A DNA stretch of 64,000 nucleotides from Acidobacteriota bacterium. GTDB lineage: Bacteria > Acidobacteriota > UBA890 > WLXD01. A program made the position numbers and the translations under genes. Under the pieces are notes generated by a model. That model saw only the letters and a list, made by a program, of their open reading frames with translations, did not search any database and was not told the origin of the DNA. Each line of letters opens with the position of its first letter. Positions within the stretch are counted from its first letter, which is position 1. The DNA is taken from NCBI GenBank assembly GCA_965248695.1, contig CBDFKD010000002.1, positions 2,400,001-2,464,000 on the forward strand, written 5' to 3'. This document shows, piece after piece, positions 11,327 through 62,400 of this stretch.

Positions 11327-11377
11327 AGCGTGCTCTTGGTTCTAGTTGGCTCCAGTTGTTCCTCGTTGGGTCCCCGC
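11327..11377 (+). repeat. Eroded partial copy of the att-like repeat (distal TTGG block only)
   Basis: GCGTGCTCTTGGTTCTAGTTGGCTCCAGTTGTTCCTCGTTGGGTCCCCGC aligns without gaps to 52162-52211 (GCGCGCTCTTGGTTCTAGTTGGCCCCAGGTGGTGCTGGTCGGTTTCCCGC). Confidence 0.75.
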
Positions 11378-11438
11378 CTAGCATGGCCCTACGGTGCAAG
11401 GCCAACGTCTGCAACTCTGCCGGACGAGGAGGTGGACC

Positions 11439-13574
11439 ATGTCGCTGCCCAGATCAACTGTCGGCCCGCAATCTCGTAGAAGGCCCCTCGGGGCACCTGT
11501 TCCAACCTTGCGTTCCTTCCGCCGCTGCGTCACCGGGCTGGTGCTGGCCGCGTGCATGCTCGCCAGCTCGGCCACCGTGGTGCCCTCGGCAGCAGGCGAG
11601 AGGGGCCCGTACGGCGTGCGGATCGAGAAGGCGTGGATCCCGATGCCGGATGGCGTGCGGCTATCCGCCACGCTGTACATGCCGGACGGGGAAGAGCCCG
11701 GGGAGAAGTTCTCGTCGGTGTTGAACTACCACCCTTACCGCAAGGACGACCGCGACGTGTCGAGCACCGACAGCTACCTCGCCGCGCACGGCATAGTGGG
11801 AGCGGTCGTCGACATCCGCGGCACCGGCAGCAGCGAGGGCAAGGCCATCGAGCACGAGTACTCGGATCCCGAGCAGCGTGACGGGCTGGAGGTCATCGAT
11901 TGGCTGTCCAAGCAACCCTGGTCGACGGGCAACGTCGGCATGCGGGGACTGTCCTGGGCCGGCTTCAACTCCATCCACATGGCGATGCGCAAACCGACGG
12001 CGCTCAAGGCCATCATGCCGAACATGGCCAGCGACGACCTCTTCTACGACGACGTGCACTACTGGGACGGCATGGTGCACCACTCCACGTGGGAGCAAGG
12101 CTTCGACGTGAGCCTCGCCAGAGGCCGTACGCCCGACTTTCCGACCGATGAGGAGACGTTGGCGCAGCGCTTCGACTCGCCGCCGCCGACGCTCTTCTAC
12201 ATCGACAAGCAACGCGACAGTTCCTACTGGGACGGCCGCTCGCTGAACAGCGACTACAGCGCCATCGACATCCCCACGATGATGATCGGTGGCTGGTACG
12301 ACGGCTATCGCGACAGCCTCTTCCGCATGCTCGAGCACATGGACGTGCCGGTCAAAGCGATCGTCGGCCCCTGGACCCACACCACACCACGCTCCGCTAG
12401 CCCCGGCCCGAGGATCGAACACCGCCACGAGATCGTGCGCTTCTTCGATCACTGGCTCAACGGCAACGACACCGGGCTCATGGACGAGCCACCATTGTCA
12501 GTCTTCGTGCAGCACTGGTACGCGCCGCCGGGCTGGGAGCTCGACGAGGTTCCCGGGGAATGGCGTCTGGAAGAATGGCCCTTGCCGCGCGCGCAAGAGC
12601 GCGCGCTGTACCTCACGGAGTCGGGCGCGCTGGCCGACGCCGCGCCGGGGGCGGGGCACCACGAGCTCGAGTACCGGCCGTCGGTCGGCGCCGAGTACGG
12701 ATCGCGGTGGTGGGGCAACTTCACACCCGACCAGCGTGAGGTCGACGAGAAGGGGAGCCTCGTGTACGAGAGCGAGCCGCTCACCGAGGATCTCGAGATC
12801 CTCGGCAATCCCATGGCGATGCTGCACGCCTCCGCATCGGCACCGCTCGCCAACTGGTTCGGGCGGCTGTCGGACGTGGCTCCGAACGGCAGCGTGACAC
12901 TGGTCACGGGCGGCGGCATGAGCGGTGCGCGACGCGATCAGTCCGAGGAGCCGACGGCGCTCGAGCCCGGCAAGGTGTACCCGCTGGAGCTGGAGCTACA
13001 CGTGACCTCCTGGGTGTTCCCCAAGGGCCACAAGATCCGGCTGGCGATCTCCAACGCGTTCTTCCCGCTCAACTGGCCGACGCCCTACCCCATGACCACG
13101 TCGCTGTATTTCGGCGGCGATCAGGTTTCCAAGCTCGTGCTTCCCACGGTGCCCTTCGAGGCGCGCCCGAAACCGGAGTTCCTCCCGGTGCAACCGCATC
13201 CACCGTCCGGCGACATGAACTACCTGCCGGGCTCGTCGTCACGGAAGATCGACCGCAACGAGGAGGCCGGACGGACACGCATCTCAGTGCGCAGCACCAG
13301 CGCTACCGACTACCCGTGGGGAAGGCGGGCTTCGGACCAGAACCTGATCTACGACATCGACGACGATCGGCCCGAGGCGGCGGAGCTAAGCAGTGACAAC
13401 AGCATCACGTTGACCCTCGACGGCGGATCACGCGTGCTTGTGTATCGCGGCTGGATGAACTTCCAGGGCGATCTCGACAACTTCTACTATCGCTACCGGC
13501 GAACGCTGCTAGAGAACGGCATCCAGATCCGACAGAAGAGCTGGGAAAAGACCGTCCCGCGGAACTACCACTAG
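11439..13574 (+). CDS. CocE/NonD family hydrolase (peptidase S15-like)
   Basis: IPMPDGVRL, YHPYRKDD, VDIRGTGSSEG, GLSWAG nucleophile elbow, GPWTH, and a C-terminal jelly-roll domain. Confidence 0.88.
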   Translation: MSLPRSTVGPQSRRRPLGAPVPTLRSFRRCVTGLVLAACMLASSATVVPSAAGERGPYGVRIEKAWIPMPDGVRLSATLYMPDGEEPGEKFSSVLNYHPYRKDDRDVSSTDSYLAAHGIVGAVVDIRGTGSSEGKAIEHEYSDPEQRDGLEVIDWLSKQPWSTGNVGMRGLSWAGFNSIHMAMRKPTALKAIMPNMASDDLFYDDVHYWDGMVHHSTWEQGFDVSLARGRTPDFPTDEETLAQRFDSPPPTLFYIDKQRDSSYWDGRSLNSDYSAIDIPTMMIGGWYDGYRDSLFRMLEHMDVPVKAIVGPWTHTTPRSASPGPRIEHRHEIVRFFDHWLNGNDTGLMDEPPLSVFVQHWYAPPGWELDEVPGEWRLEEWPLPRAQERALYLTESGALADAAPGAGHHELEYRPSVGAEYGSRWWGNFTPDQREVDEKGSLVYESEPLTEDLEILGNPMAMLHASASAPLANWFGRLSDVAPNGSVTLVTGGGMSGARRDQSEEPTALEPGKVYPLELELHVTSWVFPKGHKIRLAISNAFFPLNWPTPYPMTTSLYFGGDQVSKLVLPTVPFEARPKPEFLPVQPHPPSGDMNYLPGSSSRKIDRNEEAGRTRISVRSTSATDYPWGRRASDQNLIYDIDDDRPEAAELSSDNSITLTLDGGSRVLVYRGWMNFQGDLDNFYYRYRRTLLENGIQIRQKSWEKTVPRNYH

Positions 13575-13753
13575 GGCTCGAGCAAGCCTCGCTGCACCGT
13601 GTCTTGTGAGCGGATCTCTCGCGGTTTGCTCCCAGCCAGCCGCGGCAGAATCGCCGCGATCATCGTTCTCGACGCGCTGGCGGTCTTCGGTGCCGCGTCG
13701 TAGGGTCGGCGCGTCCGAAGTGCAGGCATAGCACCACGAAAGGAAGAAGAGAG

Positions 13754-18032: not shown

Positions 18033-19775
18033 ATGGGGTTGCGCGGCATAGTTGCGTTGATCGCCTTGGCCCAGGCGGCCATGGGAGCGGATGGCTCGCC
18101 GGCGGACATGGTTTTTGTGAATGGCGCCGTTTACACGGTTGATGCGGCGCGAAGCCGGGCGTCCGCGATGGTGGTGACCGGTGATCGGATCACCTATGTC
18201 GGCGACGATGCCACTGCGCGCGATTTCGTCGGCCCGGCGACACGTGTCGTCGACCTCGAGCGGCGCATGCTGCTGCCAGGCTTCCAGGACTCCCACGTAC
18301 ACCCCGGAATGGTTCCCAATCCGGCCGACTACGTGAGGCTCGACGGCCTGATTCGGCGCCAGGACGTACTCGAGAGGATTCGGCAGTATGCCCAGGCGCG
18401 TCCCGACAAACCCTGGATAGAGGGCGGCGGCTGGGACGAGACGGCGTTTCTTCCTAGCGGCCTGCCCACCCGGGAGATGCTCGATAGCGTGGTCCCTGAC
18501 CGACCCGCGTATCTGGTCAACAACTCCGGCCACGGCGGTTGGGCCAATTCGCTGGCGCTGGCGGCAGCGGGCATCAACGCAGATACGCCCGACCCGCCCA
18601 ACGGACGAATCGAGCGCGACGCAGACGGTCAGCCGACGGGCGCCCTGCACGAGGAGTCGGCAATGGCGCTGGTCGACGCCGTCATTGCGCCGCTGACGCC
18701 CGACGCGCGCGTGCGGAATCTGTCGGCGGCACTGGACGAAATGAGTCGACTGGGCATCACGGCGCTCGAGGACGCCATGGCCACTCCCGAGATCGCGCGC
18801 GCCTACAAGACGCTGGACGCGCGCGGCAAGCTGCACCAGCGCACCAACCTGTGTCTGCCCCACAGCCCCGACGAAGACGATGACGCCCAGATCGAGTCGT
18901 TTCTGGCCCAGCGCGACGAGCTTGCAGGTCGCCGGTTACGGGCCGGCTGTGTGAAGCTCTTTCTCGACGGCGCCTACGGGTCTCACACGGTCGTCTTGCT
19001 CGAGCCGTACAGCGACGATCCAGACACGTACGGTAAGGGTGAGCTCTTCATCGAGCAGAGCCGACTCGACCGTCTTGTCACCCGCCTGGACGCCGAGGGT
19101 TTTCGGGTACACGCGCACGCTCAAGGCGACGGCGCCGTGCGTGCCGCACTCGACGCCTTTGCCGAGGCTCGTCGGCACAACGGCTTCCGCGACAACCGGC
19201 ACACCATCGCCCACCTGTGTCTGATCGACGCCGCCGACATCCAGCGTTTCAGGACCCTCGGTGTGATCGCCAACATGACCCCACTGTGGAGCCTTGGCGA
19301 CGCCTGGGAAACGGTGTTTGCGCCACGTCTATTCGGGCCGGAGCGCAGCCAGCGCATCTTCCAGACCCGGACGCTCCTGGGCTCGGGCGTGATTGTCGCC
19401 TGGGGTTCCGACTGGGATGTCACCGGGGTTTCACCCCTCGACGGCCTCGAGACCGCGACCACCCACCGCTATCCCGGCGGCATAGATCTCGCCGGCAACG
19501 AGGACAGCGCCTGGCTTCCTGAGGAGCGGGTCAGCCTGGAGCAAGCTATCGTCGCCTACACCAGCGCCGGGGCGTATCTCATGCACGCCGACAGCACGAG
19601 AGGATCGCTCTCGGCAGGCAAGCTGGCTGACTTCGTCGTTCTGGACAGCAACCTCTTCGAAAGAGCTCCCCTGGAGATCCACACCGTGCAGGTCGACATG
19701 ACGGTCGTCGGTGGACAGTTGGTGTACACGGCGCCTGTCCCGGCTTCACCAAGCGATGCTGGCCCTTCCCGCTGA
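18033..19775 (+). CDS. Amidohydrolase 3 (YtcJ-like), secreted
   Basis: PGFQDSHVH, KLFLDG, HAHAQGD, RHTIAH, GSDW and GKLADFVVL motifs. Confidence 0.88.
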   Translation: MGLRGIVALIALAQAAMGADGSPADMVFVNGAVYTVDAARSRASAMVVTGDRITYVGDDATARDFVGPATRVVDLERRMLLPGFQDSHVHPGMVPNPADYVRLDGLIRRQDVLERIRQYAQARPDKPWIEGGGWDETAFLPSGLPTREMLDSVVPDRPAYLVNNSGHGGWANSLALAAAGINADTPDPPNGRIERDADGQPTGALHEESAMALVDAVIAPLTPDARVRNLSAALDEMSRLGITALEDAMATPEIARAYKTLDARGKLHQRTNLCLPHSPDEDDDAQIESFLAQRDELAGRRLRAGCVKLFLDGAYGSHTVVLLEPYSDDPDTYGKGELFIEQSRLDRLVTRLDAEGFRVHAHAQGDGAVRAALDAFAEARRHNGFRDNRHTIAHLCLIDAADIQRFRTLGVIANMTPLWSLGDAWETVFAPRLFGPERSQRIFQTRTLLGSGVIVAWGSDWDVTGVSPLDGLETATTHRYPGGIDLAGNEDSAWLPEERVSLEQAIVAYTSAGAYLMHADSTRGSLSAGKLADFVVLDSNLFERAPLEIHTVQVDMTVVGGQLVYTAPVPASPSDAGPSR

Positions 19776-19844
19776 CCGAGGCACGGAGAAGCGTTTCTGC
19801 GCCTCTGAACCGACGATCGTGGCGATCGCGTGGCCTTCCTCACC

Positions 19845-36860: not shown

Positions 36861-36884
36861 CGATTGACGGCTCGATTTCCAACC

Positions 36885-44000: not shown

Positions 44001-44003
44001 CTG

Positions 44004-44115
44004 CGAAGATCCACGGGGCGCGGAACCACTCGCTAGAGGTCAGTCCACATATCGGAGATGCCCGATCTGGGAGAGCGGCGAGCTTCGACGAGCGATGTTC
44101 CCTTTCGGCTATCCG
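44004..44115. repeat. About 112-bp dispersed repeat, copy 1 (copy 2 at 61935..62046)
   Basis: Ungapped hand alignment gives 25 mismatches in 112 nt; shared blocks TCCACGGGGCGC, GTCAGTCCACA and GAGAGCGGCGAGCTT. Confidence 0.85.
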
Positions 44116-51716: not shown

Positions 51717-51723
51717 GCGAATC

Positions 51724-52043: not shown

Positions 52044-52085
52044 GCGCCCGTAGCTCAGCTGGATAGAGCAGCGGACTTCTAATCC
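52044..52085 (+). tRNA. tRNA-Arg(TCT) 5' half only (non-functional fragment, att core), copy A
   Basis: GCGCCCG TA GCTC AGCTGGATA GAGC A GCGGA CTTCTAA TCC gives the acceptor 5' strand, D arm and anticodon arm. No T arm or 3' acceptor strand follows. Confidence 0.9.
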
Positions 52086-52230
52086 AAACGCGCGCAGTTG
52101 GTTCGCGTTGGCGCTCGTTGTTTCTTCTTTGCTGCCGCTGGGTTGCGTTGGCAACGGATCAGCGCGCTCTTGGTTCTAGTTGGCCCCAGGTGGTGCTGGT
52201 CGGTTTCCCGCGGGCACAATCTCGGGCACA
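52044..52230 (+). repeat. att-like unit A: tRNA half + 10-bp-phased TTGG array + GGGCACA pair
   Basis: Colinear and ungapped with units B and C; GGGCACA at 52212 and 52224. Confidence 0.9.
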
Positions 52231-52320
52231 GTTCAGAACGGTCAAACGGCATCGCCACTGGTGCTCGTCGGCATCACTACTCGTTCGCAGCAACTAGAAA
52301 CTGGTTCAGGAGGACTTGCA

Positions 52321-54291
52321 ATGGCTCCTTTCCGCCGTTCCGTCATCATCTGCCTCATGGCCAGCCTCGGTGCGGGGGCGCTACCGGCCGCAACAACACC
52401 GCCTGCACAACCACAGCAGTCGGAGTGGAGCTACTTCGGTGGCAGCAAAGCGTTCACCCGCTACTCGCCTCTAGATCAGATCGACCGCGACAACGTGGCC
52501 CAACTGGAGATCGTTTGGGGACGCCCGGCGGTCCGCAGCGACCTCATCGAGGCTTTCCCCGATCTGTTCGCGCGCGCCTACCTGCGGTCGACCCCGATCA
52601 TCATCGACGGCGTGCTCTACACGCAGGACGCCCACGGGCTGGTGATCGCTCTGGACGGCCGAACCGGCGAGACCGTCTGGCAACAGGATCTCGTGGCCCT
52701 CACCGAGGAAGAGGCCGAAGGTGCGCCCACGCGCGGCGTCGACTACTGGAGCGACGGCGAGGGCGACGAACGGATCGTGGCGGTGCGCGGCGAATACCTG
52801 TATGCGATCAACGCCACGACCGGCGAGCCGTATGACGATTTCGGCGACGGTGGCCGCGTCTACCTGCGGTACGAGGACGGCGCGGCGCCAGCGGGGAGTT
52901 TCAGCGACAGCAGCGGTCCGATCGTCGTACGCGACGTCGTGGTCATCAGCGGACTTTCCGGCGGTGCGGGGGACCGCGGCAACAAGATGGAGGCGGTCTC
53001 GGAGGACGCACGGGGCTACGACGTCCGCACGGGAGAGCTGCGGTGGACGTTTCACGCCGTGCCGCGCGAAGGCGAGGTCGGCGTCGACACCTGGGGCAAC
53101 GACTCGTGGAAGGTCGCCGGCGACATGGGTGCCTGGTCGCTGATGAGCGCCGACGAGGAGCTCGGCCACGTGTATGTGGCGTTCTCGGCTCCGACGACCG
53201 CCTGGTACGGGGGCTGGAGGCCGGGCGACAACCTCTTTTCCAACAGCCTCGTGGCGCTCAACGCGCAGACCGGTGAGCGCGTCTGGCACTTCCAGATGAT
53301 CCACCATGGCCTGTGGGACTACGAGCCCATCGGCCCGGCGACGCTGGGCGAGATCACGGTCGACGGGCGCCGGATCCCGGTGGTGATGCAGCCCACCAAG
53401 CACGGGTTCCTGTTCGTGTTCGACCGCCGGAACGGCGAGCCCTTGTGGCCCATCGAGGAGCGCCCGGTGCCGGCGTCGACGGTGCCCGGGGAGGCAGCCT
53501 CGCCGACACAGCCGTTCCCCAGCAAGCCGCCGCCGTTCGACTGGCAGGGCATCACCGAAGCCGACCTGATCGACTACACGCCGGCGCTCAACCGCCAGGC
53601 GCGCGAGCTCGCCAGCCAGTACGTCACCGGGCCCCTGTTCACGCCGCCCTCCGTCCCCAGCGACGAGCCCGGAGGCACGAAGGGCTCGCTGCTGTACCCC
53701 GGCTCCTGGGGCGCGGGCAACTGGAACACTGGCGCGTTCGACCCGGAGACCGGCGTCTACTACGCAGTCTCCAACAGCTCCTACGGCCCGACGAACCGCA
53801 ACGCAGTCAAGCAGACCGACCCGGCGGCGACCATGGAGTACGCCTACGAGCCGGCCGCCGCGCCCACGATCGACGGGCTGTTCATCATGAAGCCCCCCCA
53901 CGGCCGCATCACGGCCCTGGACCTGAACCGCGGCGAGCAGCTGTGGATGGCGGCCAACGGCGACGGGCAGCGGAAGCACCCGTTGCTGCGGCACCTGAAC
54001 CTGCCGCCGCTCGGCGTTCCGAACCGTCCAGCGCCGCTGCTGACCAAGACCCTGCTCTTCCTCGGAGAGGGCAGCAACGCCGTCATGGGTACCCTCGACG
54101 AGGAGTGGGCCTGGGGCACGGTCTTTCGCGCCTATGACAAGGCTACCGGCGACGTGGTGTGGGCCATGGAGTTGCCATCCGGAACCACAGCCGGCCCCAT
54201 GACCTACATGCTAGACGGTAGGCAGTACATCGTCGTGTCGGTCGGCGACCAGAACCACCCGCCGGAGTACGTCGCCCTGGCGCTCCCCTAG
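52321..54291 (+). CDS. PQQ-dependent dehydrogenase (glucose/quinate dehydrogenase-like), secreted
   Basis: WSYFGG...RYSPLDQI, RGVDYW, RGYDVRTG, PGDNLF, WHFQMIHHGLWDY, WPIEERPVP and PMTYMLDGRQYI motifs. Confidence 0.9.
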   Translation: MAPFRRSVIICLMASLGAGALPAATTPPAQPQQSEWSYFGGSKAFTRYSPLDQIDRDNVAQLEIVWGRPAVRSDLIEAFPDLFARAYLRSTPIIIDGVLYTQDAHGLVIALDGRTGETVWQQDLVALTEEEAEGAPTRGVDYWSDGEGDERIVAVRGEYLYAINATTGEPYDDFGDGGRVYLRYEDGAAPAGSFSDSSGPIVVRDVVVISGLSGGAGDRGNKMEAVSEDARGYDVRTGELRWTFHAVPREGEVGVDTWGNDSWKVAGDMGAWSLMSADEELGHVYVAFSAPTTAWYGGWRPGDNLFSNSLVALNAQTGERVWHFQMIHHGLWDYEPIGPATLGEITVDGRRIPVVMQPTKHGFLFVFDRRNGEPLWPIEERPVPASTVPGEAASPTQPFPSKPPPFDWQGITEADLIDYTPALNRQARELASQYVTGPLFTPPSVPSDEPGGTKGSLLYPGSWGAGNWNTGAFDPETGVYYAVSNSSYGPTNRNAVKQTDPAATMEYAYEPAAAPTIDGLFIMKPPHGRITALDLNRGEQLWMAANGDGQRKHPLLRHLNLPPLGVPNRPAPLLTKTLLFLGEGSNAVMGTLDEEWAWGTVFRAYDKATGDVVWAMELPSGTTAGPMTYMLDGRQYIVVSVGDQNHPPEYVALALP

Positions 54292-54293
54292 GC

Positions 54294-54308
54294 GGGGGGG
54301 GGGGGGGG
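54294..54308 (+). repeat. G15 homopolymer tract
   Basis: 15 consecutive G between the PQQ gene stop and the CoA-ligase upstream region. Confidence 0.9.
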
Positions 54309-54370
54309 AACTGTCGAGTGGTAGACAATCTGGGTTGCAGCAAAGTCAATCCTGGTTCTTTGTACGGCAG

Positions 54371-55690
54371 ATGACGGTGCGGACGCAGCACGCGATCGAT
54401 GGGGCAGAGTTCCTCGACGAAGGCGAGCTCGCAGCGATCCGCACAGACCGTTGGCGCGCGCAGAGTGCCTATGTCGCGCGCGCGTCCCCGTTCTACGCAA
54501 GGCACTTCGCCGGGTTGAAACTGACCGGCGACCTCGCCGAGCTGGCGGACCTACCGTTCACTGACAAGGAGATGCTGCGCGCCGACCAGCGCGCCCAGCC
54601 GCCGTTCGGCAGCTACCTCGCCGCGCCGCCGCAGGACATTCGCCGCGTCCACCGCACCTCGGGCACCACCGGCGACGCCATGAACCTGGCGCTGTCGGCC
54701 GCGGACGCGAGGATGACCGCCGCGGTCGGCGCGCGCGCCCAGTCCGCTGCCGGACTCGGGCCGAGCCACCGGGTGGTGCACTGCCTCAACTATCAGCTGT
54801 GGATGGGTGGGTTCACCGACCACACGACGCTGGAGGCCACCGGCGCCACCGTGATCCCCTACGGCGTCGGCGATAGCGCGACGCTGATCCGGGTAATCCG
54901 CGACCTCGGCGTCACCGCGATCTCCTGCACGCCCTCCTATCCGGCGGTGCTGGAGCAGGTGCTGGCGGAGCACTATCCCGGCCTGGCGCCGCGTGACCTC
55001 GGCCTGCAGCTAGGCCTGTTCGGCGGCGAGCCCGGCCTCGACGACCCGGTGTTCCGTGCCCGGCTGGAAGAGACCTGGGGCTTCCTCGCCCGCAACGCCA
55101 ACTACGGCGTCACCGATATGCTGTGCAACTTCGCCGGCCAGACGGAGCTCTGCAACGACCTGCACTTCATGGCGCCCGACGTGCTGGAGGCGGAGCTGAT
55201 CGACCCCGACGCCGGCACCCGGCTGCCGTGGCGCGAAGGCGAGTCCGGCGAGCTGGTGCTGACCCACCTCGCCAAGGATTGCCAGCCGCTGGTGCGCTTC
55301 CGCACCGGCGACATCGTCACGTTGGCCGGCACCGGCCGGGCTGATTGCGGCCGCACGGTGCCCCGGTTCCGCGTCGTCGGCCGCAGCGACGACATGGTGG
55401 TGGTGCGCGGCCTCAGTACATTCCCGACCATGGTGGCATCCGTGCTCAACGGCTTCGACGCGATGAGCGGCGAGTACCGCATCGTGCTCGACCGGCCGCC
55501 ACCCTACGATGTGCTGCCGGTCGAGGTCGAGCTCGCCGAAGGGCAGGACGGCGGCGCTGATCTGGCGGCCAGCATCAAGGCGGCAATCAAGCGGGAGCTT
55601 GGCGCCACGGCGCGGGTGACGGTGCTGCCGCCGCGCAGCCTGCCGCGCACCGAGGGAAAGACCCGCCGCGTCTGGAGAACCTACACATGA
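54371..55690 (+). CDS. Phenylacetate-CoA ligase family protein
   Basis: LPFTDKE, TSGTTG, CTPSY, GGEPG, NYGVTD, RFRTGD, GRSDDM..VRG and EGKTRR motifs. Confidence 0.88.
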   Translation: MTVRTQHAIDGAEFLDEGELAAIRTDRWRAQSAYVARASPFYARHFAGLKLTGDLAELADLPFTDKEMLRADQRAQPPFGSYLAAPPQDIRRVHRTSGTTGDAMNLALSAADARMTAAVGARAQSAAGLGPSHRVVHCLNYQLWMGGFTDHTTLEATGATVIPYGVGDSATLIRVIRDLGVTAISCTPSYPAVLEQVLAEHYPGLAPRDLGLQLGLFGGEPGLDDPVFRARLEETWGFLARNANYGVTDMLCNFAGQTELCNDLHFMAPDVLEAELIDPDAGTRLPWREGESGELVLTHLAKDCQPLVRFRTGDIVTLAGTGRADCGRTVPRFRVVGRSDDMVVVRGLSTFPTMVASVLNGFDAMSGEYRIVLDRPPPYDVLPVEVELAEGQDGGADLAASIKAAIKRELGATARVTVLPPRSLPRTEGKTRRVWRTYT

Positions 55691-56448
55691 CCGCATTCGA
55701 CTACGAGACGGTGCTGAGCGAGTACGAGGCCGACGGCGTCCGCACCATCACGCTCAACCGGCCGGAGAGCCTCAACGCTATGAATCGCCAGTTGGTCGAC
55801 GACGTGGCAAAGGCCTTCGCCGACGCCGACGCCGACCCCGATACGCGGGCGGTGATCTTCACTGGCGCCGGCCGCGGGTTCTGTGCCGGCGACGACCGGC
55901 GCGAGCACACGCACCCGGAGACCGAGGCCGCTGCACGCGACATCGTCGACGCGATCCAGCGCGCGACCGACGCCATCGTTTTCGGCGGTAAGCCGGTGGT
56001 GGGCGCGATCAACGGTTGGGCCGTCGGCGGCGGCTTCGAATGGGCGATCAACTGCGACTTTCCGATCTGGGCCGAAAGCGCCAAGGGCTTCTTCCCCGAG
56101 GTCTCGCTCAACCTGTTCGTCACCGGCGGCGTCACCTCGCTGCTGCCGGCACTGGTCGGCCTAAACCGCGCGAGAGAGATGCTGTTCCTCGGTGCGCGCT
56201 ACGACGCCGCAACGCTGCGCGAGTACGGCATCGCCTGGCGCGTGGTGCCCGATGCCGCGCTGATGGACGAGGCGCGCCCTGTGGCGCGCCAGCTCGCCGA
56301 GCTTCCGCCGCTGGCAATACGCGCCATGCGCCGCACGCTCTACCGCACCGCGATGACGGACCTCGCCTCCGCGATGCGGCTGGAAGGGGAGGCCACCGTC
56401 GCCGGCTTCCTCGACCCGGAGACCACCAAGCGGGTCAAGGACTTCTGA
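55687..56448 (+). CDS. Enoyl-CoA hydratase/isomerase family protein
   Basis: TLNRPESLNA, FCAGDD, KPVVGAINGWAVGGGFE and FPEV motifs; ATGA overlap with the ligase gene. Confidence 0.9.
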   Translation: MTAFDYETVLSEYEADGVRTITLNRPESLNAMNRQLVDDVAKAFADADADPDTRAVIFTGAGRGFCAGDDRREHTHPETEAAARDIVDAIQRATDAIVFGGKPVVGAINGWAVGGGFEWAINCDFPIWAESAKGFFPEVSLNLFVTGGVTSLLPALVGLNRAREMLFLGARYDAATLREYGIAWRVVPDAALMDEARPVARQLAELPPLAIRAMRRTLYRTAMTDLASAMRLEGEATVAGFLDPETTKRVKDF

Positions 56449-56661
56449 CCGAAGACGGACGTGCGGCGGCGGCCTGGTCTCGGCTTCGAGGAGTCCTGAT
56501 CGCCCTCGCTCCGCCAGGCAAAGGCGGTCCCGCAGCGAATCCCTTGAGGAGCCCAACGATCAGTGGTTGCATCCACGCGTCCCTCTACTGACCAAGCCAA
56601 GAAAGTGACTCGACAAGGGTCATGCCGGAATCCCGGGAGGTAGACAGTGGTTGGAGGATCG

Positions 56662-58460
56662 ATGACTGAATCCAGGCCGCGGCTGTTGATCGCTTTGCTG
56701 GCGAGCCTGAGCATATCGGCTTGTCAGCCGTCAACGCAGGACGCGTCGCCAGGCGATGCTGGCAGCCCAGCCGATTTGGTGCTGCAGGGCGGCAAGTTCT
56801 TTACCGTCGACGAAGCCCAGGTTTGGGCTGAAGCCGTCGCGGTCAAGGACGGCAGGTTCGTCTACGTCGGCAACGACGTTGGTGCAGAGAGCTTCGTCGG
56901 TCCCGATACCGATCGCCATGACCTCGGCGGCAAGCTGACGATTCCCGGCCTGGTGGATTCCCATACGCACCCAGGTCTGATGGGGCGGGAGACGGCCGGG
57001 TACACCGCAGTCCCCGTGGGTGGTGGTCCCAGAGGAAGGCTGCCCGGGGGTGGGACCAAGGAGGAGATCTTCGCTGCGGTGGAGGCCTATGCCGAAGCCA
57101 ACCCGGACCTTGCCTGGATCGAGATGGGTAGCTGGTCCGGGGATCTGTACGGCGTCGCGGGCCCACACAAGAGAGATCTGGATCGCGTCGTACCCGATCG
57201 ACCGGTGATGTTAGGAAGCGTCCATAGCCTTTGGGTCAATTCCGTGGCGCTCGAGATGATGGGGGTCGACAGCAACACACCCGATCCGGTACCCGGTCTC
57301 TCATACTTCGTACGGGATGCGGATGGGGAGCCTACCGGCTGGATCAAGGAATGGGCCGCCTGGCCCTATGTGCAGCACCTTACTGACGTTGACCGGGAGG
57401 CCAACAAGGAGGGTATCGACACCTTCTTGGAGTACCTGTCAGGCCACGGCGTTACTACACTCTTGGACGCTGGCAACAACAGCTACCACGATCTCACGTA
57501 CTCGCTGCTTGCCGAGCTAGAGGCAGCCGGTCGCCTGCCGGTTCGCTACGAGGGCAGCGATCACATCTTCTTGCCCGATCAGGTGCCCGGTGCGATCGAT
57601 GAGCTACAGCGGCTGCACCGCACTTACGGCAGCGAGCGTCTGACGTTCAACACGATCAAGATTCACTTCGACGGCACGGACGAGATTCGTACCGGCGCGG
57701 TGCTCGAGCCGTTCAGCGATGACCCGGGCAACCGAGGCGCTACGCTCCTCGACACCGAGGAGTTGAGTGATTTCATCGTGCAGCTTCACGAAGCCCGGAT
57801 CGATTTACACCTGCACATCGTGGCCGACCGGGGCGTTCGCATCGCGCTGGATGCCGTAGAAGCGGCGCGGGGATCGGTCGACGGCGAGCTCTATCCGCGC
57901 GTTACGATCTGCCACCTCGACATCATCGATACGGTCGACTACCCGCGTTTCAAACAGCTGGGTGTCATTGCCAACTACACACCCCAATGGCACGGCCTGG
58001 GAGACAGACCGCCGTTACCCTTGGCGATCGCTTCGAGAGGATGTTGCTGGTGCAGCCGTTACTGGATGACGGTGCGTTGGTCACCTTCTCCAGCGACGTA
58101 ACATCGCTCGGGGGCATGGAGCGGGCCAACCCATATCTGGGAATGCAGATCGGCCACAACCGCCAATACCACGAACAGGGCGAGGCCGCGCCGATAAGGC
58201 TGCCGCTGAGCGAACGGCTGAACCTGGAGGATCTGATCAAGGGATACACCTTGAACGGCGCCTACCAGCTCCGTATGGAGGACCAGCTCGGCTCGATCGA
58301 GGTGGGCAAGCTCGCCGATCTGGTGGTGTTGGATCGCAACCTGTTCGAAATCGATCGCTACGAGATCCACGAGGTTCGACCCGAGGCGGTCATCATGGAA
58401 GGCGAGATCATCAGGGGGAGCTTGGACGGCAGCGCGGGCGCCCGTAGCTCAGCTGGATAG
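56662..58460 (+). pseudogene. Amidohydrolase 3 (YtcJ-like) lipoprotein, frameshifted near 58000
   Basis: PGLVDSHTH, KIHFDG and RVTICH in one frame; FSSD, YTLNGA and GSIEVGKLADLVVL in another (57987..58460). The stop codon lies inside the tRNA fragment. Confidence 0.8.
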
Positions 58461-58476
58461 AGCAGCGGACTTCTAA
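58438..58476 (+). tRNA. tRNA-Arg(TCT) 5' half only (non-functional fragment, att core), copy B
   Basis: 39 nt identical to 52044-52082, ending at the CTTCTAA anticodon loop. Confidence 0.9.
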
Positions 58477-58624
58477 ACCAAACGGTCGCAGTTGGTTCTG
58501 GTTGGCGCTGCTTGGTTCTTCTTTGCTGGCGTTGGTTTGCGTTGGTGCCCGATCACGCCGCTCTTGGCTAGCGTTGGTTCCCGTTGGTGCTGGCTGGTTT
58601 CCCGCGGGCACGATCGTGGGCAGA
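58438..58624 (+). repeat. att-like unit B
   Basis: tRNA half, phased TTGG array, GGGCACG at 58606 and GGGCAGA at 58618. Confidence 0.9.
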
Positions 58625-58769
58625 GTTTGGAACACCCCGATCACGGCTCCGACGATAGACTGTCTGAATACTGCCGCGGTAGGCTGTCACCTGCTGCGCG
58701 AGATGGGCGCTCCCTGGTCCCGCCGAGAGGCAGCGGCGGCGCACGGAGCGCTACGGGTCGGGACGGAGC

Positions 58770-59594
58770 ATGCGAACAGCGGAGGTCGAAGCCACCGGCT
58801 GGCGCGATCGCCTGCACGAGATCATCTTCGAGGCCGAGACACCGGCCGGTAAGAACTTCGACGTCGCGCTGTTGGTTCTGATCGTGCTCAGCGTGGTGAA
58901 CGTCTCTCTGGAGAGCGTCGCCGAGATCCGTGCCGAGCACGGGCTGCTGCTCCGACGCGTGGACTGGGCGATCACCATCCTGTTCACGATCGAGTACGTT
59001 CTCCGGCTGCTGTGCGTCCGCCGGCCCTTGCGCTACGCGCGGTCGTTCTACGGCGTGGTCGACCTGATGGCGGTGCTGCCTGTCTACCTGAGCCTGGTGA
59101 TCTCGGGGTCCCAGTCGCTGGTGGTGGTCCGGACCCTGCGCCTTCTGCGCGTCTTCCGTGTGCTCAAGCTGGCGCACTTCATCGGCGAGGAGCGCGCGCT
59201 GCGGGCGGCACTGCGAGCCAGCTCGCGCAAGATCGTAGTGTTCCTCGGTGCCGTGCTGACGGTGGTGCTGATCGTGGGTGCGGTGATGTACCTCATCGAG
59301 GGGCCGCAGAACGGTTTCAACAGCATCCCGGAATCGGTTTACTGGGCGATCGTCACGATGACGACCGTCGGCTACGGCGACCTTGCCCCCCAGACCGTGG
59401 CCGGCAAGCTCCTGGCGTCGGCGATCATGATCCTCGGGTACGGCATCATCGCCGTGCCCACCGGTATCGTCACGGTGGAGGTGGCCAGCACGCTACGAAC
59501 CTCGACGCGCACGATCGCCTGTCGCGAGTGCGCGATGGAGGGGCACGCCAGCGACGCGGTGTACTGCAAGTTTTGCGGTACGCGTCTCGAGTAG
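58770..59594 (+). CDS. Voltage-gated potassium channel-like ion transporter
   Basis: RTLRLLRVFRVLK S4 helix; TMTTVGYGD selectivity filter; C-terminal CxxC...CxxC. Confidence 0.92.
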   Translation: MRTAEVEATGWRDRLHEIIFEAETPAGKNFDVALLVLIVLSVVNVSLESVAEIRAEHGLLLRRVDWAITILFTIEYVLRLLCVRRPLRYARSFYGVVDLMAVLPVYLSLVISGSQSLVVVRTLRLLRVFRVLKLAHFIGEERALRAALRASSRKIVVFLGAVLTVVLIVGAVMYLIEGPQNGFNSIPESVYWAIVTMTTVGYGDLAPQTVAGKLLASAIMILGYGIIAVPTGIVTVEVASTLRTSTRTIACRECAMEGHASDAVYCKFCGTRLE

Positions 59595-59666
59595 CTGCGA
59601 CAGGATCGACGCGCGTCGCGCTGCACGAAGCCACCGATGTTCACGCTTCAGAGCTCGTGAAGAACC

Positions 59667-61889
59667 CTATTCGTCTATCCCGAAGGCCAATAGCACATTC
59701 CCCGGGCTATTACCGAAAATCGCGTACCCGGATCCCATGTACATCATCCCATCGACGATCGTTGGGGAGGTGGCACCAATCGCGCCGCCGAATGCCGGCA
59801 CTTCGTTAATGGCTTCGTAGGTTCGTTTCGTGGCGTATTCCCAGAGAATCCCGCCGTCCGCCTTTGAATATGCACGGAGTGTCCCTTGGGAAGAGCCGGT
59901 GATTACCGCACCGGGCACTGCGGTTGCCGCCGCCGTGTAACCCGAGGAGCAGGCGTTGAAACCCTCCAGGTCGCAGTCCTCCAGCCCCGGCAGCTCCGTG
60001 TACCAGACGCGCTCCCCCGTCGTCACCCGCAATGCCGCGACGGCTCCGGTCGCGTCCCGGTAGGTCAGCGGACGATAGAAGAGCTCGCCGTCGGACGCCC
60101 CGCCCCAACCCGCCGCGTTGGGAGCAAGCCGGTCGCCGGCCTGGGCTACCCAGAGGACTGCCCCGTTGTTGTCGGGATCCAAAGCGGTGATGCGGCCGCT
60201 CTCCTGTACGCCCAGCAGAACGCGGCGACCGTTCGGTAGGTCGAGCAGAATCGCCTGGTTGACGTCGTCGCCCGGGCCCTGAATGTAGCCAGGACAATTG
60301 ATCACACGCTCGGGACCGTGGCCGCAGCCACCTGAGTCTCGATCCGAGGCCGCAGGAAAGAGGTTGGTCATCCACAACCGTCGGCCGCTATCCATGTCGA
60401 GGGCCAGCATCGAGTTGCAGGCGCCGCCGTCGAAGGTCACGTTGCCGACACCGAAGTGCTCAGTGATGCCGCAGTTCCCGGTGGGCGCATAGATCGCGCG
60501 CCGTTTCTCGTCGATCGCGAGCGAGCTCCAGATGCCGGCGCCGGACGGTCCGAACAGCGGCGTGCCGGCCGAGTTGTTCTTGTCGAGTGGACGAGGCCGC
60601 TCTGGAAGTGCATACGTTTGCCAGACCTTCTCACCGTTCTTCACGTCGACCGCCACGACGTTGCCCTGGAACGTGCAACACTCGTACTCGAGATGGGTAC
60701 CTGGCTGTTCTTCCCACGACGCGACGGGCACATACAGGCGCTCGCCTGAGGAGTCGAGTCTCACGGCGGATGTGATCTTCGCCTGTGGGTGATCATCGGG
60801 GCGCATGGTCCACATCCCCTCGCCCGTCTCGGCGTTCACTCCGTACACGACCCCGCTCATGTCGCCAAAATACGCGCCATGGCGGACCCCCGGAACTCCA
60901 TCGACCGGGCCGATCTTGACCGCGCCCCGGACCGCCGTCTGCGCGCGGTACGACCAGTGAACGCAGCCGGTCTTGGCGTCGAGCGCATAGACGAAGAAGT
61001 TGTCGCTCGTAATGAACAGCGCACCGCCCACCACGCTGGGTTGCGACCAGTTGGCCACCGAGGCATCCGGGATCGCGAAAACCCACTTCAGCTTCAGGCG
61101 CGGGAGGTCCGCGGCGGTGATGCCGCCGACCGCCTCCGACGCGAACCGATGCACAGCGAGCTCGGGATCCCAACCGTTCCAACTGGGTTGGTCGTCCCAG
61201 TTGTCGAGGTTCAGGGGCCTGTCACACTGGTTCGGCATGGCCGACGCCTCGCGGTGGGCAACGCCGCCGAACGGCTTGCCGGTCACGAGCTCGATGGTGG
61301 CGCGCTTGTACTCCTCGTCGTCGAAGATCCGGAAGCGATCGCTCTCGTCATGTGCCGCGATCGGGCGGTGCAACACTGCCAGGAGCTCGTCGGGTTCCAT
61401 TTGCTGGATATCGAACCGTGACGGCATGCTGGCGGGAACGGTCCCTCCCGAAACGGGTCGACCGTCAGGCGAATTGTCGTGGCAGACCGCACACCCGTTT
61501 TCGAAGACACCGACCATCCTTGCCGGATAAACGGTGCGGTCGGCCGCGCTACCGAGAGGCTTGCCGGTCACGAGCTCTGCCATCGCCCGCAGCTCGTCGT
61601 CCGTGAACTCGGACGTGAACTCCACCATGGGCCCTTCCATCAGGGCGATGAGGACCTGCTCCGGTTCCATCTGTCGAAGCGCCGCCCGAGTGGGTGCCAG
61701 GATCTCGTCGCTCTGACTGTCATGACACTCGGCACAGACCGCTTCATACGTCGACACCATGCTGGCGGCGGTGGCCCTCGGTTCCGGCACATCTTGTGCC
61801 TGGACCGGCGCAGTAAGGAGCTGCGTCGTCAATGCGACTACAGCTGCAAACACCGTCACCGAGCTCATCATCAGGGCTCGTCTGAGCAT
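59667..61889 (-). CDS. Quinohemoprotein dehydrogenase (PVA dehydrogenase-like) with two c-type heme motifs
   Basis: CAECH and CAVCH; LKLKWVF; DAKTGCVHW; ECCTFQG; GPSGAGIW; C-terminal GNVLLAF. Confidence 0.85.
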   Translation of the reverse strand: MLRRALMMSSVTVFAAVVALTTQLLTAPVQAQDVPEPRATAASMVSTYEAVCAECHDSQSDEILAPTRAALRQMEPEQVLIALMEGPMVEFTSEFTDDELRAMAELVTGKPLGSAADRTVYPARMVGVFENGCAVCHDNSPDGRPVSGGTVPASMPSRFDIQQMEPDELLAVLHRPIAAHDESDRFRIFDDEEYKRATIELVTGKPFGGVAHREASAMPNQCDRPLNLDNWDDQPSWNGWDPELAVHRFASEAVGGITAADLPRLKLKWVFAIPDASVANWSQPSVVGGALFITSDNFFVYALDAKTGCVHWSYRAQTAVRGAVKIGPVDGVPGVRHGAYFGDMSGVVYGVNAETGEGMWTMRPDDHPQAKITSAVRLDSSGERLYVPVASWEEQPGTHLEYECCTFQGNVVAVDVKNGEKVWQTYALPERPRPLDKNNSAGTPLFGPSGAGIWSSLAIDEKRRAIYAPTGNCGITEHFGVGNVTFDGGACNSMLALDMDSGRRLWMTNLFPAASDRDSGGCGHGPERVINCPGYIQGPGDDVNQAILLDLPNGRRVLLGVQESGRITALDPDNNGAVLWVAQAGDRLAPNAAGWGGASDGELFYRPLTYRDATGAVAALRVTTGERVWYTELPGLEDCDLEGFNACSSGYTAAATAVPGAVITGSSQGTLRAYSKADGGILWEYATKRTYEAINEVPAFGGAIGATSPTIVDGMMYMGSGYAIFGNSPGNVLLAFGIDE

Positions 61890-61934
61890 CGGATTCCTCC
61901 AGTTCGAGAGCCTGAAGCCTATCGCCAGAGCGTT

Positions 61935-62046
61935 CGAGGGTCCACGGGGCGCAAGACCACCCGCTATCCGTCAGTCCACACATCGAAGATGCTCCCTACG
62001 AGAGAGCGGCGAGCTTAGCCGAGGGATGTGTGCTTCCGGCCATCCG
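61935..62046. repeat. About 112-bp dispersed repeat, copy 2
   Basis: Direct repeat of 44004..44115; lies about 95 bp left of the upstream arm of att-like unit C. Confidence 0.85.
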
Positions 62047-62139
62047 GGGCGCGGGGAACCGATCCTGCGCCTGTGAACTGACGAATAGTGGCTATCGCAA
62101 TCCGCATTTCTGGAGATGCGCCGACTCTTGCTAAACTGC

Positions 62140-62400
62140 GGGCACAGTTTGGGCACAATCGGCCTCACAAGAAAACACCGTGCAGCTCCTAAGTGCCCAT
62201 GAATAAAGGGGCGCCCGTAGCTCAGCTGGATAGAGCAGCGGACTTCTAAACCAACCGCGCGCAGTTGGTTCCAGTTGGCGCTGCTTGGCGCTCGTTGGCT
62301 GGCGTTGGTTTGGGTTGGTGCCGAATCAGCTCGGCTTTGGTTCTAATTGGTTCCAGTTGGTGCTGCTTGGTTCCCCGCGGGCACAATCGTGGGCACAATC
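62140..62400 (+). repeat. att-like unit C, the most complete (attP-like, arm repeats on both sides)
   Basis: GGGCACA at 62140 and 62151; tRNA half 62211-62249; TTGG at 62265, 62275, 62285, 62295, 62305, 62315 and 62337, 62347, 62357, 62367; GGGCACA at 62379 and 62391. Confidence 0.9.
62211..62249 (+). tRNA. tRNA-Arg(TCT) 5' half only (non-functional fragment, att core), copy C
   Basis: 39 nt identical to copies A and B. Confidence 0.9.

Follow-up and report, generated by a model that had tools for sequence, protein, structure and literature searches.

Displaced tRNA-Arg(TCT) 5' halves bounding integrase-less metabolic units in an Acidobacteriota genome: a putative gene-collecting site

Array of tRNA-Arg(TCT) 5' halves and structure of its junctions

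The window analysed here is a stretch of 64,000 nucleotides on contig C2 of a 5.9-Mb metagenome-assembled genome of an Acidobacteriota soil bacterium, which consists of two contigs (hereafter G000). Three exact copies of the 39-bp 5' half of tRNA-Arg(TCT) (GCGCCC...CTTCTAA) were found in it, all on the + strand and each followed by an arm of about 150 bp carrying TTGG and GGGCAC motifs (Table 1), which confirms what the preliminary description had reported. The half had no match in 100 shuffles. In the whole genome we detected seven exact displaced halves, all on the + strand, the four outside the window being located to its right (C2 2465463, 2468253, 2473309 and 2476537), and the array ends 15 kb to the right of the window at an intact tRNA-Arg(TCT) gene (C2 2479082-2479157, +). 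Such further co-oriented copies leading to an intact gene on this side had been predicted. The successive core-to-core distances are 6394, 3773, 3252, 2790, 5056, 3228 and 2545 bp. When up to four substitutions were allowed, nine matches to the half were obtained genome-wide, all on the + strand of C2: the seven exact displaced copies, the intact gene and a decayed half with three mismatches at 2394504, 85 kb upstream of the intact gene. All seven copies are identical to the gene from tRNA base 1 onwards, and the identity stops with the last base of the anticodon loop. An intact tRNA gene with co-oriented displaced fragments on the correct side is the arrangement sought for a tRNA-gene island array.

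The genome has 59 tRNAs, one of which is tRNA-Arg(tct). ARAGORN identified no tRNA in the window, and no 3' half of tRNA-Arg(TCT) was found apart from that of the intact gene. When the tRNA genes of G000 were scanned, no second co-oriented array of 5' halves was detected, and the tRNAs other than tRNA-Arg(TCT) had single 3' fragments at most. Rfam searches with the loci L001 and L003 returned the tRNA alone, together with one sub-threshold antisense match on the tRNA. A promoter and terminator scan of L001, which is uninformative for this phylum, revealed no promoter-like site by the cores, and the counts did not exceed those in shuffles. We also observed a 36-nt string dispersed in G000, the source of which is a doubtful 98-nt 'tRNA-Pro' call.

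The layout of a junction resembles that of an attP site, with a P arm, the tRNA 5' half as the core and a P' arm. The P' arms of the window copies are homologous over about 150 bp after each core, with TTGG at positions +16, 26, 36, 46, 56 and 66 and then at +88, 98, 108 and 118, and with a GGGCAC pair of 11-bp spacing at about +128. Two arm families (types A and B) were distinguished, which differ in sequence and have identical phasing and geometry. The 20-mer GGGCACAGTTTGGGCACAAT of the type A P arm recurs in the integrase gene of locus L082, within its 3' coding end, and GHSLGTI can be read from the arm in one frame, matching L082. Judged by its sequence, the type A P arm is thus an apparent relic of an integrase 3' end. 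Upstream of it lies a right-end module that is common to three units of G000 and to copies in the related genomes G002 and G004; a long-range stem is predicted for its fold, with an unfavourable covariation term and double changes in only four pairs.

The preservation of the arms tracks the proximity to the intact gene: both arms are present at the sites from 62211 to 79082 (in window numbering), only P' arms are left at 52044 and 58438, the sites farther left (11332, 19755, 36884 and 44002) are fragments, and the farthest core is mutated. Two of these fragments (11332 and 36884) had been taken for shorter copies of the half; they are real and lie on the + strand, but they match the second TTGG block of the arm only and are not tRNA halves. 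The gene blocks on either side of the fragment at 19755 (17990-19772 and 19823-21250) occupy separate locations in G002 and G004, and the fragment at 44002 abuts an IS copy (42741-44000) whose transposase has rve domains. At most of the older block junctions no recognisable site is left.

Table 1. Features of the array within the 64,000-nucleotide window (positions are those of the window)
Feature	Position	Strand	Remarks
Type A P' arm remnant	11332..11377	+	second TTGG block; upstream of S15 peptidase gene; blastn 87%/46 bp, E 5e-9
Type A right-end module remnant	19755..19816	+	between two gene blocks; blastn 81%/63 bp
Type A P' arm remnant	36884..36918	+	directly after Rieske oxygenase gene; blastn 89%/35 bp
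Type A right-end module remnant	44002..44115	+	abuts IS copy; blastn 78%/114 bp
HigB/HigA toxin-antitoxin pair	51438..52029	+	PF05015 E 1.4e-15; HTH_3 E 6e-12
Unit U1, 6394 bp	52044..58437	+	PQQ dehydrogenase, AMP-binding enzyme, enoyl-CoA hydratase, truncated amidohydrolase (Pfam)
Displaced 5' half (core O), exact	52044..52082	+	without P arm upstream
Type A P' arm	52083..52233	+	phased TTGG; GGGCAC pair at 52212
Unit U2, 3773 bp	58438..62210	+	ion-channel gene 58770-59594 (+); cytochrome c/PQQ dehydrogenase 59667-61889 (-) (Pfam)
Displaced 5' half, exact	58438..58476	+	without P arm; amidohydrolase ORF enters core
Type A P' arm	58477..58629	+	GGGCAC pair at 58606
Right-end module, ~200 bp	61916..62121	+	long-range inverted repeat
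Type A P arm, 89 bp	62122..62210	+	pair GGGCACAGTTTGGGCACAAT at 62140-62159
Displaced 5' half, exact	62211..62249	+	arms on both sides, full attP-like junction
Type A P' arm	62250..62400	+	6 + 4 TTGG at 10-bp spacing; GGGCACA pair at 62379
Unit U3, start of cargo	62401..64000	-	Ser/Thr protein kinase with PD40 repeats, 931 aa

Cargo of the units and integrases of related genomes

The halves delimit seven units of 2.5-6.4 kb (U1-U7), all of them without an integrase; a unit holds between one and a few genes for metabolism or signalling, and several units are only 2.5-3.3 kb long and carry a single large gene. U2-U7 have a core and arms at both ends, and according to Pfam their cargo consists only of metabolic, channel, kinase and Calx-beta genes. 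Most cargo genes are directed opposite to the array. U3 extends past the window to C2 2465462, and the toxin-antitoxin pair stops 15 bp before the core at 52044. The amidohydrolase gene of U1 is cut off by the next core. This cassette occurs twice, since positions 4484-6394 of U1 are 89.75% identical to positions 331-2246 of U4, and the match ends 14 bp short of the end of the U4 gene. On these alignments U1 reads as two former cassettes that were probably fused by deletion.

The order of the cargo differs between congeneric genomes, in line with the earlier expectation of variable cargo at the sites. The island blocks shared by G000 and G002 are shuffled in order and 91.2% identical (12 blocks, 27.1 kb), against 80.5% for the collinear core (13 blocks, 40.1 kb), a contrast that is biased because island blocks were counted only if similar by megablast. 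The PQQ gene of U2 has copies of 90.8-93.5% identity in G002, G004 and a metagenome contig, with different neighbours there. Moreover, arrays of the same design were found in these independent assemblies, the metagenome contig having three cores. The P arm occurs in a short form with an identical start position in G000, G002 and G004, beside different cargo, and type A arms of 88% identity are present in G020, a genome of another family. Some units have mixed ends, for instance a type B P' arm and a type A P arm in G002; such mixing of arm types implies either that arm pairing is loose or that the units are recombinant. In G002 an integrase-bearing unit adjoins integrase-less ones. The intact tRNA of that genome has an A at position 16, and the displaced halves differ at this base. 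Because the A is absent from the displaced halves, the 5' half in G002 was supplied by the incoming DNA, which agrees with the direction of transfer proposed in the preliminary description. Shuffled blocks are also located downstream of the tRNA, and one IS is present in about 50 full or partial copies; therefore, other rearrangement processes act at the locus as well. A scan of metagenomes with a 20-nt P-arm motif matched four stretches, two of which had no core, and an integrase match was found in none of the four.

We searched G000 for the integrase in several ways. The PF00589 profile gave 13 matches in the genome, none of them within 2.39-2.48 Mb, which bears out the earlier statement that the window lacks an integrase. 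A tblastn search of G000 with the G002 integrase returned nothing at E<=1e-3, and at 1e-20 a match was present in eight of the 26 genomes of the order, G000 not being among them. No integrase of the family was detected within 1.5 kb upstream of any of the nine cores in G000, or within the same distance upstream of the 11 type A P arms in G000, G001, G002, G004 and one metagenome contig. Hence the integrase expected in each island of a tRNA-gene island array is missing from G000.

In relatives, a cognate integrase is present at tRNA-Arg(TCT): a full or partial gene ends 34-41 bp upstream of it in G002, G005 and G010, and a truncated one (164 aa) lies upstream of a displaced half in G004. Of 80 integrase loci, 20 have a co-oriented tRNA that follows the stop codon of the tyrosine integrase at 22-174 bp, 40 have a convergent tRNA, and the other 20 have none within 400 bp. 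Displaced 5' halves were found 2.8-6.7 kb upstream at five of the 20 loci with a co-oriented tRNA. A GGGCACA pair lies inside the integrase 3' end at 14 of the 80 loci, and at L076 and L082 a second pair follows at about +130 after the displaced half. The location of these pairs in the 3' coding end implies that the cassette arms are the arm sites of a tyrosine-integrase family. The tyrosine integrase anticipated near a GGGCACA-armed site has its counterpart in relatives, where an integrase of the family stands immediately before tRNA-Arg(TCT) or a displaced half in the same orientation, and where GGGCACA pairs occur in integrase genes of this family. The integrases of the genus at tRNA-Arg(TCT) have GGGACA repeats, not GGGCACA, and a type-A-armed integrase adjoining a type A cassette was found in none of the genomes searched. 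Upstream of the integrase of L076 there is a weak HTH_17 match (24.4 bits against a cut-off of 27), a hint of an excisionase.

Assembly of the array and alternative explanations

We consider it probable that the array arose by site-specific accretion, in which the integrase system supplies the tRNA 5' half, and that its cassettes form an integrase-less lineage putatively moved in cis or in trans. A single tRNA-Arg(TCT) gene would have been hit repeatedly by site-specific integration. Elements with a tyrosine integrase would bring the promoter and the tRNA 5' half, ending with the anticodon loop, and insertion would restore the gene from the 5' half of the element and the 3' half of the chromosome. 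The old 5' half, with all that lies behind it, would be shifted to the left by each insertion, and therefore the newest units would adjoin the gene and the oldest would be found far to the left, decaying. The type A units may represent a non-autonomous lineage in which the integrase was lost once; its final ~89 bp would survive as the P arm, and the lineage would afterwards have spread with cargo of various kinds. Its mobilisation could have depended on an integrase acting in trans, or a unit could have left in cis within a composite that includes a neighbour bearing the integrase. The GGGCACA pairs are putative sites for the arm-binding domain of the integrase, and the 10-bp-phased TTGG blocks may serve the binding or bending by an accessory factor, e.g. 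an excisionase. For want of an integrase, the array in G000 would now be frozen. A further reading, which we put forward only tentatively, is that of a tRNA-anchored cassette platform, a counterpart of the integron in function that would be assembled from lambda-type parts. Integrase-less cassettes of one to a few genes, each with a complete attP (P arm, tRNA 5' half and P' arm), would circulate in soil Acidobacteriota and be captured serially at the single tRNA-Arg(TCT) gene by an integrase that acts in trans and supplies the tRNA 5' half, which would make the array an ordered, exchangeable catabolic store and not a graveyard.

The absence of integrases could also be explained by decay in place, if the units had come complete and each had later deleted its own integrase, none of them having moved without one. 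This is consistent with the integrase relic (GHSLGTI) kept in the P arm, with the truncated integrase of G004, with the site loss by deletion visible in U1 and with the view of CIMEs as decayed elements in the review on IMEs (PMC5704250). However, integrases are missing from all seven units of G000 and from the upstream regions of all 11 type A P arms, and several units measure only 2.5-3.3 kb and contain one large gene. Moreover, the type A P arms are homologous, and the short form, which has one start position but different neighbouring cargo in the three genomes, speaks for a single loss and later spread and not for many independent deletions. We therefore regard decay in place as unlikely. 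Homologous recombination appears less likely still. Junctions of ~0.5 kb would here act as portable homology, and after the first insertions the units would be exchanged by a RecA-type process with no site-specific enzyme. Junction sequences share 78-96% identity in stretches of 190-300 bp, which may suffice for exchange, and the mixed arm types within units, the shuffled cargo with an interspecies similarity above that of core DNA and the lack of a cognate integrase in G000 would all fit. Yet such exchange leaves unexplained the strict polarity of the array and its end at the intact gene, the exactness of the 39-bp cores next to arms diverged by 4-22%, and the geometry common to arm types A and B despite their different sequences; it could, nevertheless, operate alongside integration.

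An artefact of assembling a repeat-rich region would be very improbable. G000 is a metagenome assembly in two contigs, and contigs from short reads do not span the junctions: the locus was recovered in four runs of one sample as short contigs that stop at the repeats, with joint sides of at most 31 letters. No excision, circle or empty site was observed, contigs of this kind being unsuited to reveal one. The cargo, however, differs between the units, the contigs of the four runs show zero differences from the unique segments, and arrays of the same design recur in the independent assemblies. Least probable of all is a tRNA-derived dispersed repeat of the MITE or SINE kind that happens to be dense here. 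A tRNA-like head and a length of a few hundred bp would suit such a repeat, but the array ends at the cognate gene and no target duplications were seen. We rejected this candidate, as the half and both arms lie at one locus and on one strand, the arm queries giving no match elsewhere in the 5.9 Mb; the copies are not scattered over the genome, as the preliminary description had required of an array.

Relation to known systems

The locus looks like a putative integron-style gene-collecting site on a tRNA gene. If small integrase-less attP cassettes are indeed captured serially at a tRNA gene, bacteria would have, besides integrons, another way of collecting genes in the integron manner. It would be at work in Acidobacteriota, a soil phylum both dominant and little studied, and its cargo would comprise dehydrogenases, amidohydrolases, peptidases and transporters. 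As an object of study the locus is also clean material, since it offers two arm families of one geometry, a series of decay from the complete junction to the fragment, and arm sites that double as C-terminal coding sequence of an integrase.

As in the tandem islands of Islander and TIGER, the tRNA is split and then restored, a displaced fragment marks the end of the unit and the crossover lies in the anticodon loop. According to the paper on Islander (PMC4383910), crossover in the anticodon loop forms a recognised class (Table 1 therein), 159 islands have a 5' fragment and 3760 a 3' fragment (3919 in total), and the islands mapped in 2168 genomes included only four arrays of at least three units; an island or tandem unit is accepted there only with an integrase of its own. 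The array described here has seven units with exact cores and zero integrases. A pipeline of the Islander type would reject it because an integrase is required per unit, and arrays of this kind hence go unreported by island mappers.

CIMEs, as presented in the same review (PMC5704250), are att-flanked units without integration genes that can leave with an integrase-encoding neighbour; the review treats them as ICEs or IMEs that have decayed, of which a site at a gene's 3' end usually holds a single one. Our units share with the CIMEs of streptococcal accretion-mobilisation the att-like flanks, the lack of integration and transfer genes (no conjugation or mobilisation genes were seen in the array units) and the stacking at a tRNA gene, and in these features they conform to the class. 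They differ in being serial single-gene units with a common integrase-less end, in occurring in Acidobacteriota and in being built on the 5' half. The tycheposons of Prochlorococcus, in the account given in the preprint (10.1101/2020.12.28.424599), target tRNA genes including tRNA-Arg(tct) and carry metabolic cargo, and successive integrations push older elements inward and leave partial tRNAs and remnants; by definition they carry integrase and replication modules. Compared by gene content, our array falls outside this class, as hallmark genes for integrase, replication or packaging were found in none of the seven units.

The similarity to integrons lies in the one-directional series of small promoter-poor cassettes with a site each, in the growth at a fixed end and in the adaptive genes. 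Toxin-antitoxin cassettes occur in chromosomal integrons, and a HigB/HigA pair is likewise located within our array. The integron-like character suggested earlier is an analogy only: IntI, attI, Pc and attC are all absent, the anchor is a tRNA gene, and the array was not classed as an integron by either of the two tests applied. In contrast to attC sites, which are short imperfect palindromes and recombine in folded single-stranded form, each site here is an attP-like duplex of 300-500 bp, in which a 39-bp core is joined by direct-repeat arms of 89 bp and 150 bp, and unlike integron cassettes most cargo genes oppose the direction of the array.

With lambda attP the junctions have in common a core between two arms, tandem direct repeats 11 bp apart and a 10-bp-phased run of sites, which recalls the excisionase (Xis) filament on an arm of lambda attP. 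The ten phased TTGG sites are, however, far more than lambda has, and the autonomous relatives carry one set of arm sites inside the coding end of the integrase itself. In a limited literature search we found no description of an integrase-less multi-unit array of 5' halves. The array is best read as a variant, apparently not described before, of the tandem accretion represented by CIMEs and tycheposons, and as integron-like in function only.

The tRNA-half series and its cargo

The 39-base 5' half of tRNA-Arg(TCT), hereafter the core, was found at window positions 52044, 58438 and 62211, in each case on the + strand with 0 mismatches, and gave 0 matches in 100 shuffles. No tRNA gene was called within the window by ARAGORN. 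The window corresponds to 2400001-2464000 of contig C2 in a genome of 5.89 Mb and two contigs. When the half was searched with up to 4 substitutions across this whole genome, 9 matches were obtained, every one on the + strand of C2. As the preliminary description had predicted, the co-oriented copies continue rightwards to an intact + strand tRNA-Arg(TCT) gene, the sole one among the 59 tRNA genes of this genome. The tRNA 3' half has a single occurrence in the genome, within the intact gene, and no other tRNA gene has a 5'-half array ahead of it. The two shorter copies reported at 11327 and 36885 are real as well, but they hold no tRNA sequence and comprise only the second TTGG block of the arm that flanks the cores; an arm query against the whole genome yielded no match outside the array locus.

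Coordinates of the array and of neighbouring features (L-numbers denote extracted loci)
Feature	Coordinates	Strand	Basis or position
Exact displaced halves (n=7)	C2 2452044, 2458438, 2462211, 2465463, 2468253, 2473309, 2476537	+	genome-wide half search
Intact tRNA-Arg(tct) gene	C2 2479082-2479157	+	tRNA gene listing and half search
Half with 3 mismatches	C2 2394504	+	genome-wide half search
Arm remnant, second TTGG block only	window 11332-11377	+	87% identity
Arm remnant, second TTGG block only	window 36884-36918	+	89% identity
Right-end module	window 61916-62121; L001 1163-1375 and 3961-4170		upstream of type A P arm
HigB-like toxin and HTH_3 antitoxin pair	window 51438-52029		inside array
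Inverted copies of 1260-bp IS	window 42741-44000 and 46024-47283		
NHL-repeat gene	window 44223-45533		between IS copies
Amidohydrolase gene in two frames	window 56647-58460 (56647-58101 and 57987-58460)		right end of U1
98-nt 'tRNA-Pro(ggg)'	C2 4157204-4157301		ARAGORN

The stretches from one core to the next form seven units of 2.5-6.4 kb each (U1 to U7, U1 being farthest from the intact gene). According to Pfam, their genes encode PQQ dehydrogenases, an AMP-binding enzyme, an enoyl-CoA hydratase, amidohydrolases, an ion channel, a Ser/Thr kinase with PD40 repeats, an ankyrin/PQQ-repeat protein and two Calx-beta proteins. The older part of the array within the window holds peptidases, permeases, amidohydrolases, an esterase, Rieske oxygenases, aminotransferases and a second enolase. 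None of the 13 Phage_integrase matches of the genome lies between 2.39 and 2.48 Mb.

Several neighbouring features were also recorded. The HigB-like/HTH_3 pair, which ends 15 bp before core 52044, recalls the toxin-antitoxin cassettes that occur in chromosomal integrons. Two inverted copies of an IS, whose transposase has rve and HTH_21 domains, enclose the NHL-repeat gene in a composite-transposon-like arrangement; about 50 copies in the present genome, whether full or partial, match the version of this IS in the congener G002 at about 91%. The amidohydrolase gene that closes U1 on the right extends into the tRNA half; it is likely to be a pseudogene or to contain a sequencing error. The first 36 nt of the 'tRNA-Pro(ggg)' are repeated about 25 times across both contigs and in both orientations, and this call probably represents a dispersed repeat rather than a tRNA.

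Arms flanking the cores

Identity among the core copies extends from tRNA base 1 to the final base of the anticodon loop, and directly to the right of each core in the window lies a homologous arm (P'). Arms of two sequence families, type A and type B, occur along the array (window numbering is continued past 64000 for cores farther right). The type A P' arm follows cores 52044, 58438, 62211, 65463 and 68253 and carries TTGG blocks and GGGCACAATCGTGGGCACA; TTGG stands at +16, 26, 36, 46, 56 and 66 and then at +88, 98, 108 and 118, and a GGGCAC(A) pair, 11 bp apart, at about +128. The type A P arm, 89 bp long and bearing GGGCACAGTTTGGGCACAAT, lies left of cores 62211, 65463, 68253 and 73309 and is absent at junctions 52044 and 58438. 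In three of the four junctions that have it, this arm is preceded by a right-end module of about 200 bp, which contains a long-range inverted repeat (GTCAGTCCAC ... GTGAACTGAC) and an inner hairpin and of which partial copies are island-confined in this genome and in its congeners G002 and G004.

The two gene-proximal units have type B arms of another sequence, laid out as in type A, with TTG at the matching offsets +26, 36, 46 and +88, 98, 108 and the pair GGCAGGAATTTGGCA at +119/+130. The retention of 10-bp phasing in two arm families of unlike sequence argues for a protein array or a bend on one helix face, for which the lambda Xis filament is the nearest model. Core 76537 and the intact gene are preceded by type B P arms that do not differ over 130 bp; the newest element therefore also brings the sequence just upstream of the gene, where the tRNA gene promoter is expected.

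Some P' arms are followed by a motif of about 50 bp (GCTGACGC.GCTACGG.TCCGTCGGCACGAGCCGCTTCAGCTCGTCGAA), for instance at L001 1696-1735. It was rejected as part of the recombination site; it occurs at about 25 further places in the genome on both strands and is dispersed like a REP-type repeat. In the autonomous relatives L076 (1160-1240) and L082 (1150-1210), the displaced 5' half leads directly into a hairpin that resembles a terminator and has a T run, at the place where type A and B cassettes have phased TTG blocks.

Integrases of relatives and signs of unit turnover

A tblastn search of the genome for the cognate integrase gave no match at E ≤ 1e-3; at 1e-20 no family match was found either, whereas 8 of 26 genomes of the order have one. 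In G002, a co-oriented 363-aa tyrosine integrase gene has its stop 34 bp upstream of the intact tRNA-Arg(TCT) gene, and three displaced halves lie farther upstream of it. A truncated copy of this integrase is found immediately upstream of a displaced half in G004. Two further genomes have family members at this site: G005 has two, one upstream of the intact gene and the other upstream of a displaced half, and G010 has one upstream of the tRNA-Arg(TCT) gene. Members likewise stand upstream of tRNA-SeC, tRNA-Lys(CTT) or tRNA-Lys(TTT) in six genomes (G001, G002, G004, G007, G014 and G020).

A scan of species-representative genomes retrieved 143 integrase relatives, of which the best 80 were kept; these are labelled as Acidobacteriota, Vicinamibacterales, Nitrospira, Rokubacteria, Binatia and other MAGs. 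Among these best 80 of 143, the tRNA was co-oriented just downstream of the integrase at 20 loci and convergent with it at 40, the latter being the classical layout, which supplies the 3' part of the tRNA; the other 20 had no tRNA within 400 bp. A displaced 5' half 2.8-6.7 kb upstream in 5 of the 20 co-oriented loci delimits small autonomous elements.

At 14 of the same best 80 loci, the last integrase codons contain a GGGCACA-N-GGGCACA pair, so that the predicted tyrosine integrase beside a related GGGCACA-armed site does exist in relatives, as at L076 and L082. The pair at the integrase end of L082 forms a 20-mer identical to that of the type A P arm, and both L076 and L082 have a second GGGCACA pair about 130 bp past the displaced half, as in type A; G002-type integrases have GGGACA repeats in corresponding positions. 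These matching pairs, in integrase 3' ends and after the halves, indicate that the type A arms are arm-type sites of this integrase family. The cassette P arm accordingly reads as a relic of an integrase 3' end, in which GHSLGTI is still readable in one frame, the frame being broken farther upstream. The integrase C-terminal motif itself (G-T-x-x-G-Q-S or G-H-S-L-G-T) is near-invariant and encoded by arm-type repeats (L014 13051-14142; L045-L124), and it may be conserved because its DNA is a binding site.

The claim that incoming DNA supplies the 5' half was borne out in G002, where position 16 is A in the intact gene and C in two exact displaced halves, a difference indicating that the gene-adjacent element brought its own 5' half. 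Cargo also varied between related genomes, as had been expected: gene-sized blocks from 2385-2490 kb are also present in G002 and G004, differently ordered and oriented, and a right-end module remnant lies at one breakpoint of this shuffling (window 19772/19823). Against G002, 12 island blocks (27.1 kb) showed 87.4-93.9% identity (mean 91.2%) and 13 collinear core blocks farther right (40.1 kb) 75.5-84.8% (mean 80.5%), a contrast biased by the omission of island blocks too diverged for megablast; 0 of the 13 core blocks attained the lowest island identity (87.4%).

Over 1922 bp, the right part of U1 matches U4 cargo at 89.75% identity, and its copy of the U4 gene is cut by the next core 14 bp short of the gene end. 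From this we infer that U1 consists of two former cassettes joined by deletion and that the amidohydrolase cassette was acquired twice. On one metagenome contig, three cores share one orientation and carry mixed arm types, and a PQQ gene that matches U2 cargo at 93.5% identity lies among different neighbours; G020, a genome of another family, has type A arms 88% identical. In G007, two full-length tRNA-Arg(TCT) genes lie 6.6 kb apart on the same strand (L019/L020, C2 2776900 and 2783494), the farther one with 4 changes in its 5' half; this pair represents another outcome at the locus of the array.

Probable growth of the array and comparison with known systems

At the level of sequence, the locus is established as a polar series of attP-like junctions that ends at the gene, with putative arm sites of the integrase family that, in relatives, adjoins the gene and supplies its 5' half. 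Integration would occur at the intact tRNA-Arg(TCT) gene and shift older units to the left; in these, the P arm would be lost first, followed by the core together with most of the P' arm.

Type A P arms were found beside varied cargo in 11 cases (four in this genome, one in G001, three in G002, one in G004 and two on a metagenome contig), and in 0 of the 11 did a family integrase lie within 1.5 kb upstream; of the 23 cores examined in 9 sequence sets, 2 have such an integrase. It is less likely that seven complete elements decayed independently, as the type A units share one integrase-less end. Exchange by homologous recombination via the junctions may well contribute, but it leaves the polarity and the exact cores unexplained. 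The array is part of a larger plastic region, about 200 kb in extent, in which an IS is abundant and shuffled blocks flank the tRNA-Arg(TCT) gene on either side. In the reading that we prefer, one ancestor of the type A units would have lost its integrase and its descendants would have spread with varied cargo. Their movement would depend on an enzyme provided in trans or on leaving in cis together with a neighbour that bears an integrase, an exit of the kind that PMC5704250 describes for CIMEs. The present genome seems unable to move its own units at present. Among sequencing runs, the locus was found solely in sets of short contigs, which are interrupted at the repeats.

The locus shows none of the defining features of an integron. 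It was built by tandem accretion, a known process: for tycheposons, 10.1101/2020.12.28.424599 describes successive integrations by which older elements are driven into the island, gives tRNA-Arg(tct) as one of the sites and defines these elements by their own integrase and replication genes. The Islander data (PMC4383910), for which an integrase was required in each unit, list 159 islands with a 5' fragment versus 3760 that carry a 3' one; in the islands from 2168 genomes, arrays reached three or more units in 4 cases. A 2026 preprint on six species (10.64898/2026.01.13.699239) reports that islands delimited by att sites hardly ever fall under 4 kb and that just 6% of them show no recombinase trace at all. 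Thus, the locus is unusual in the number and small size of its units, its zero integrases, its full attP junctions and its 5' polarity.
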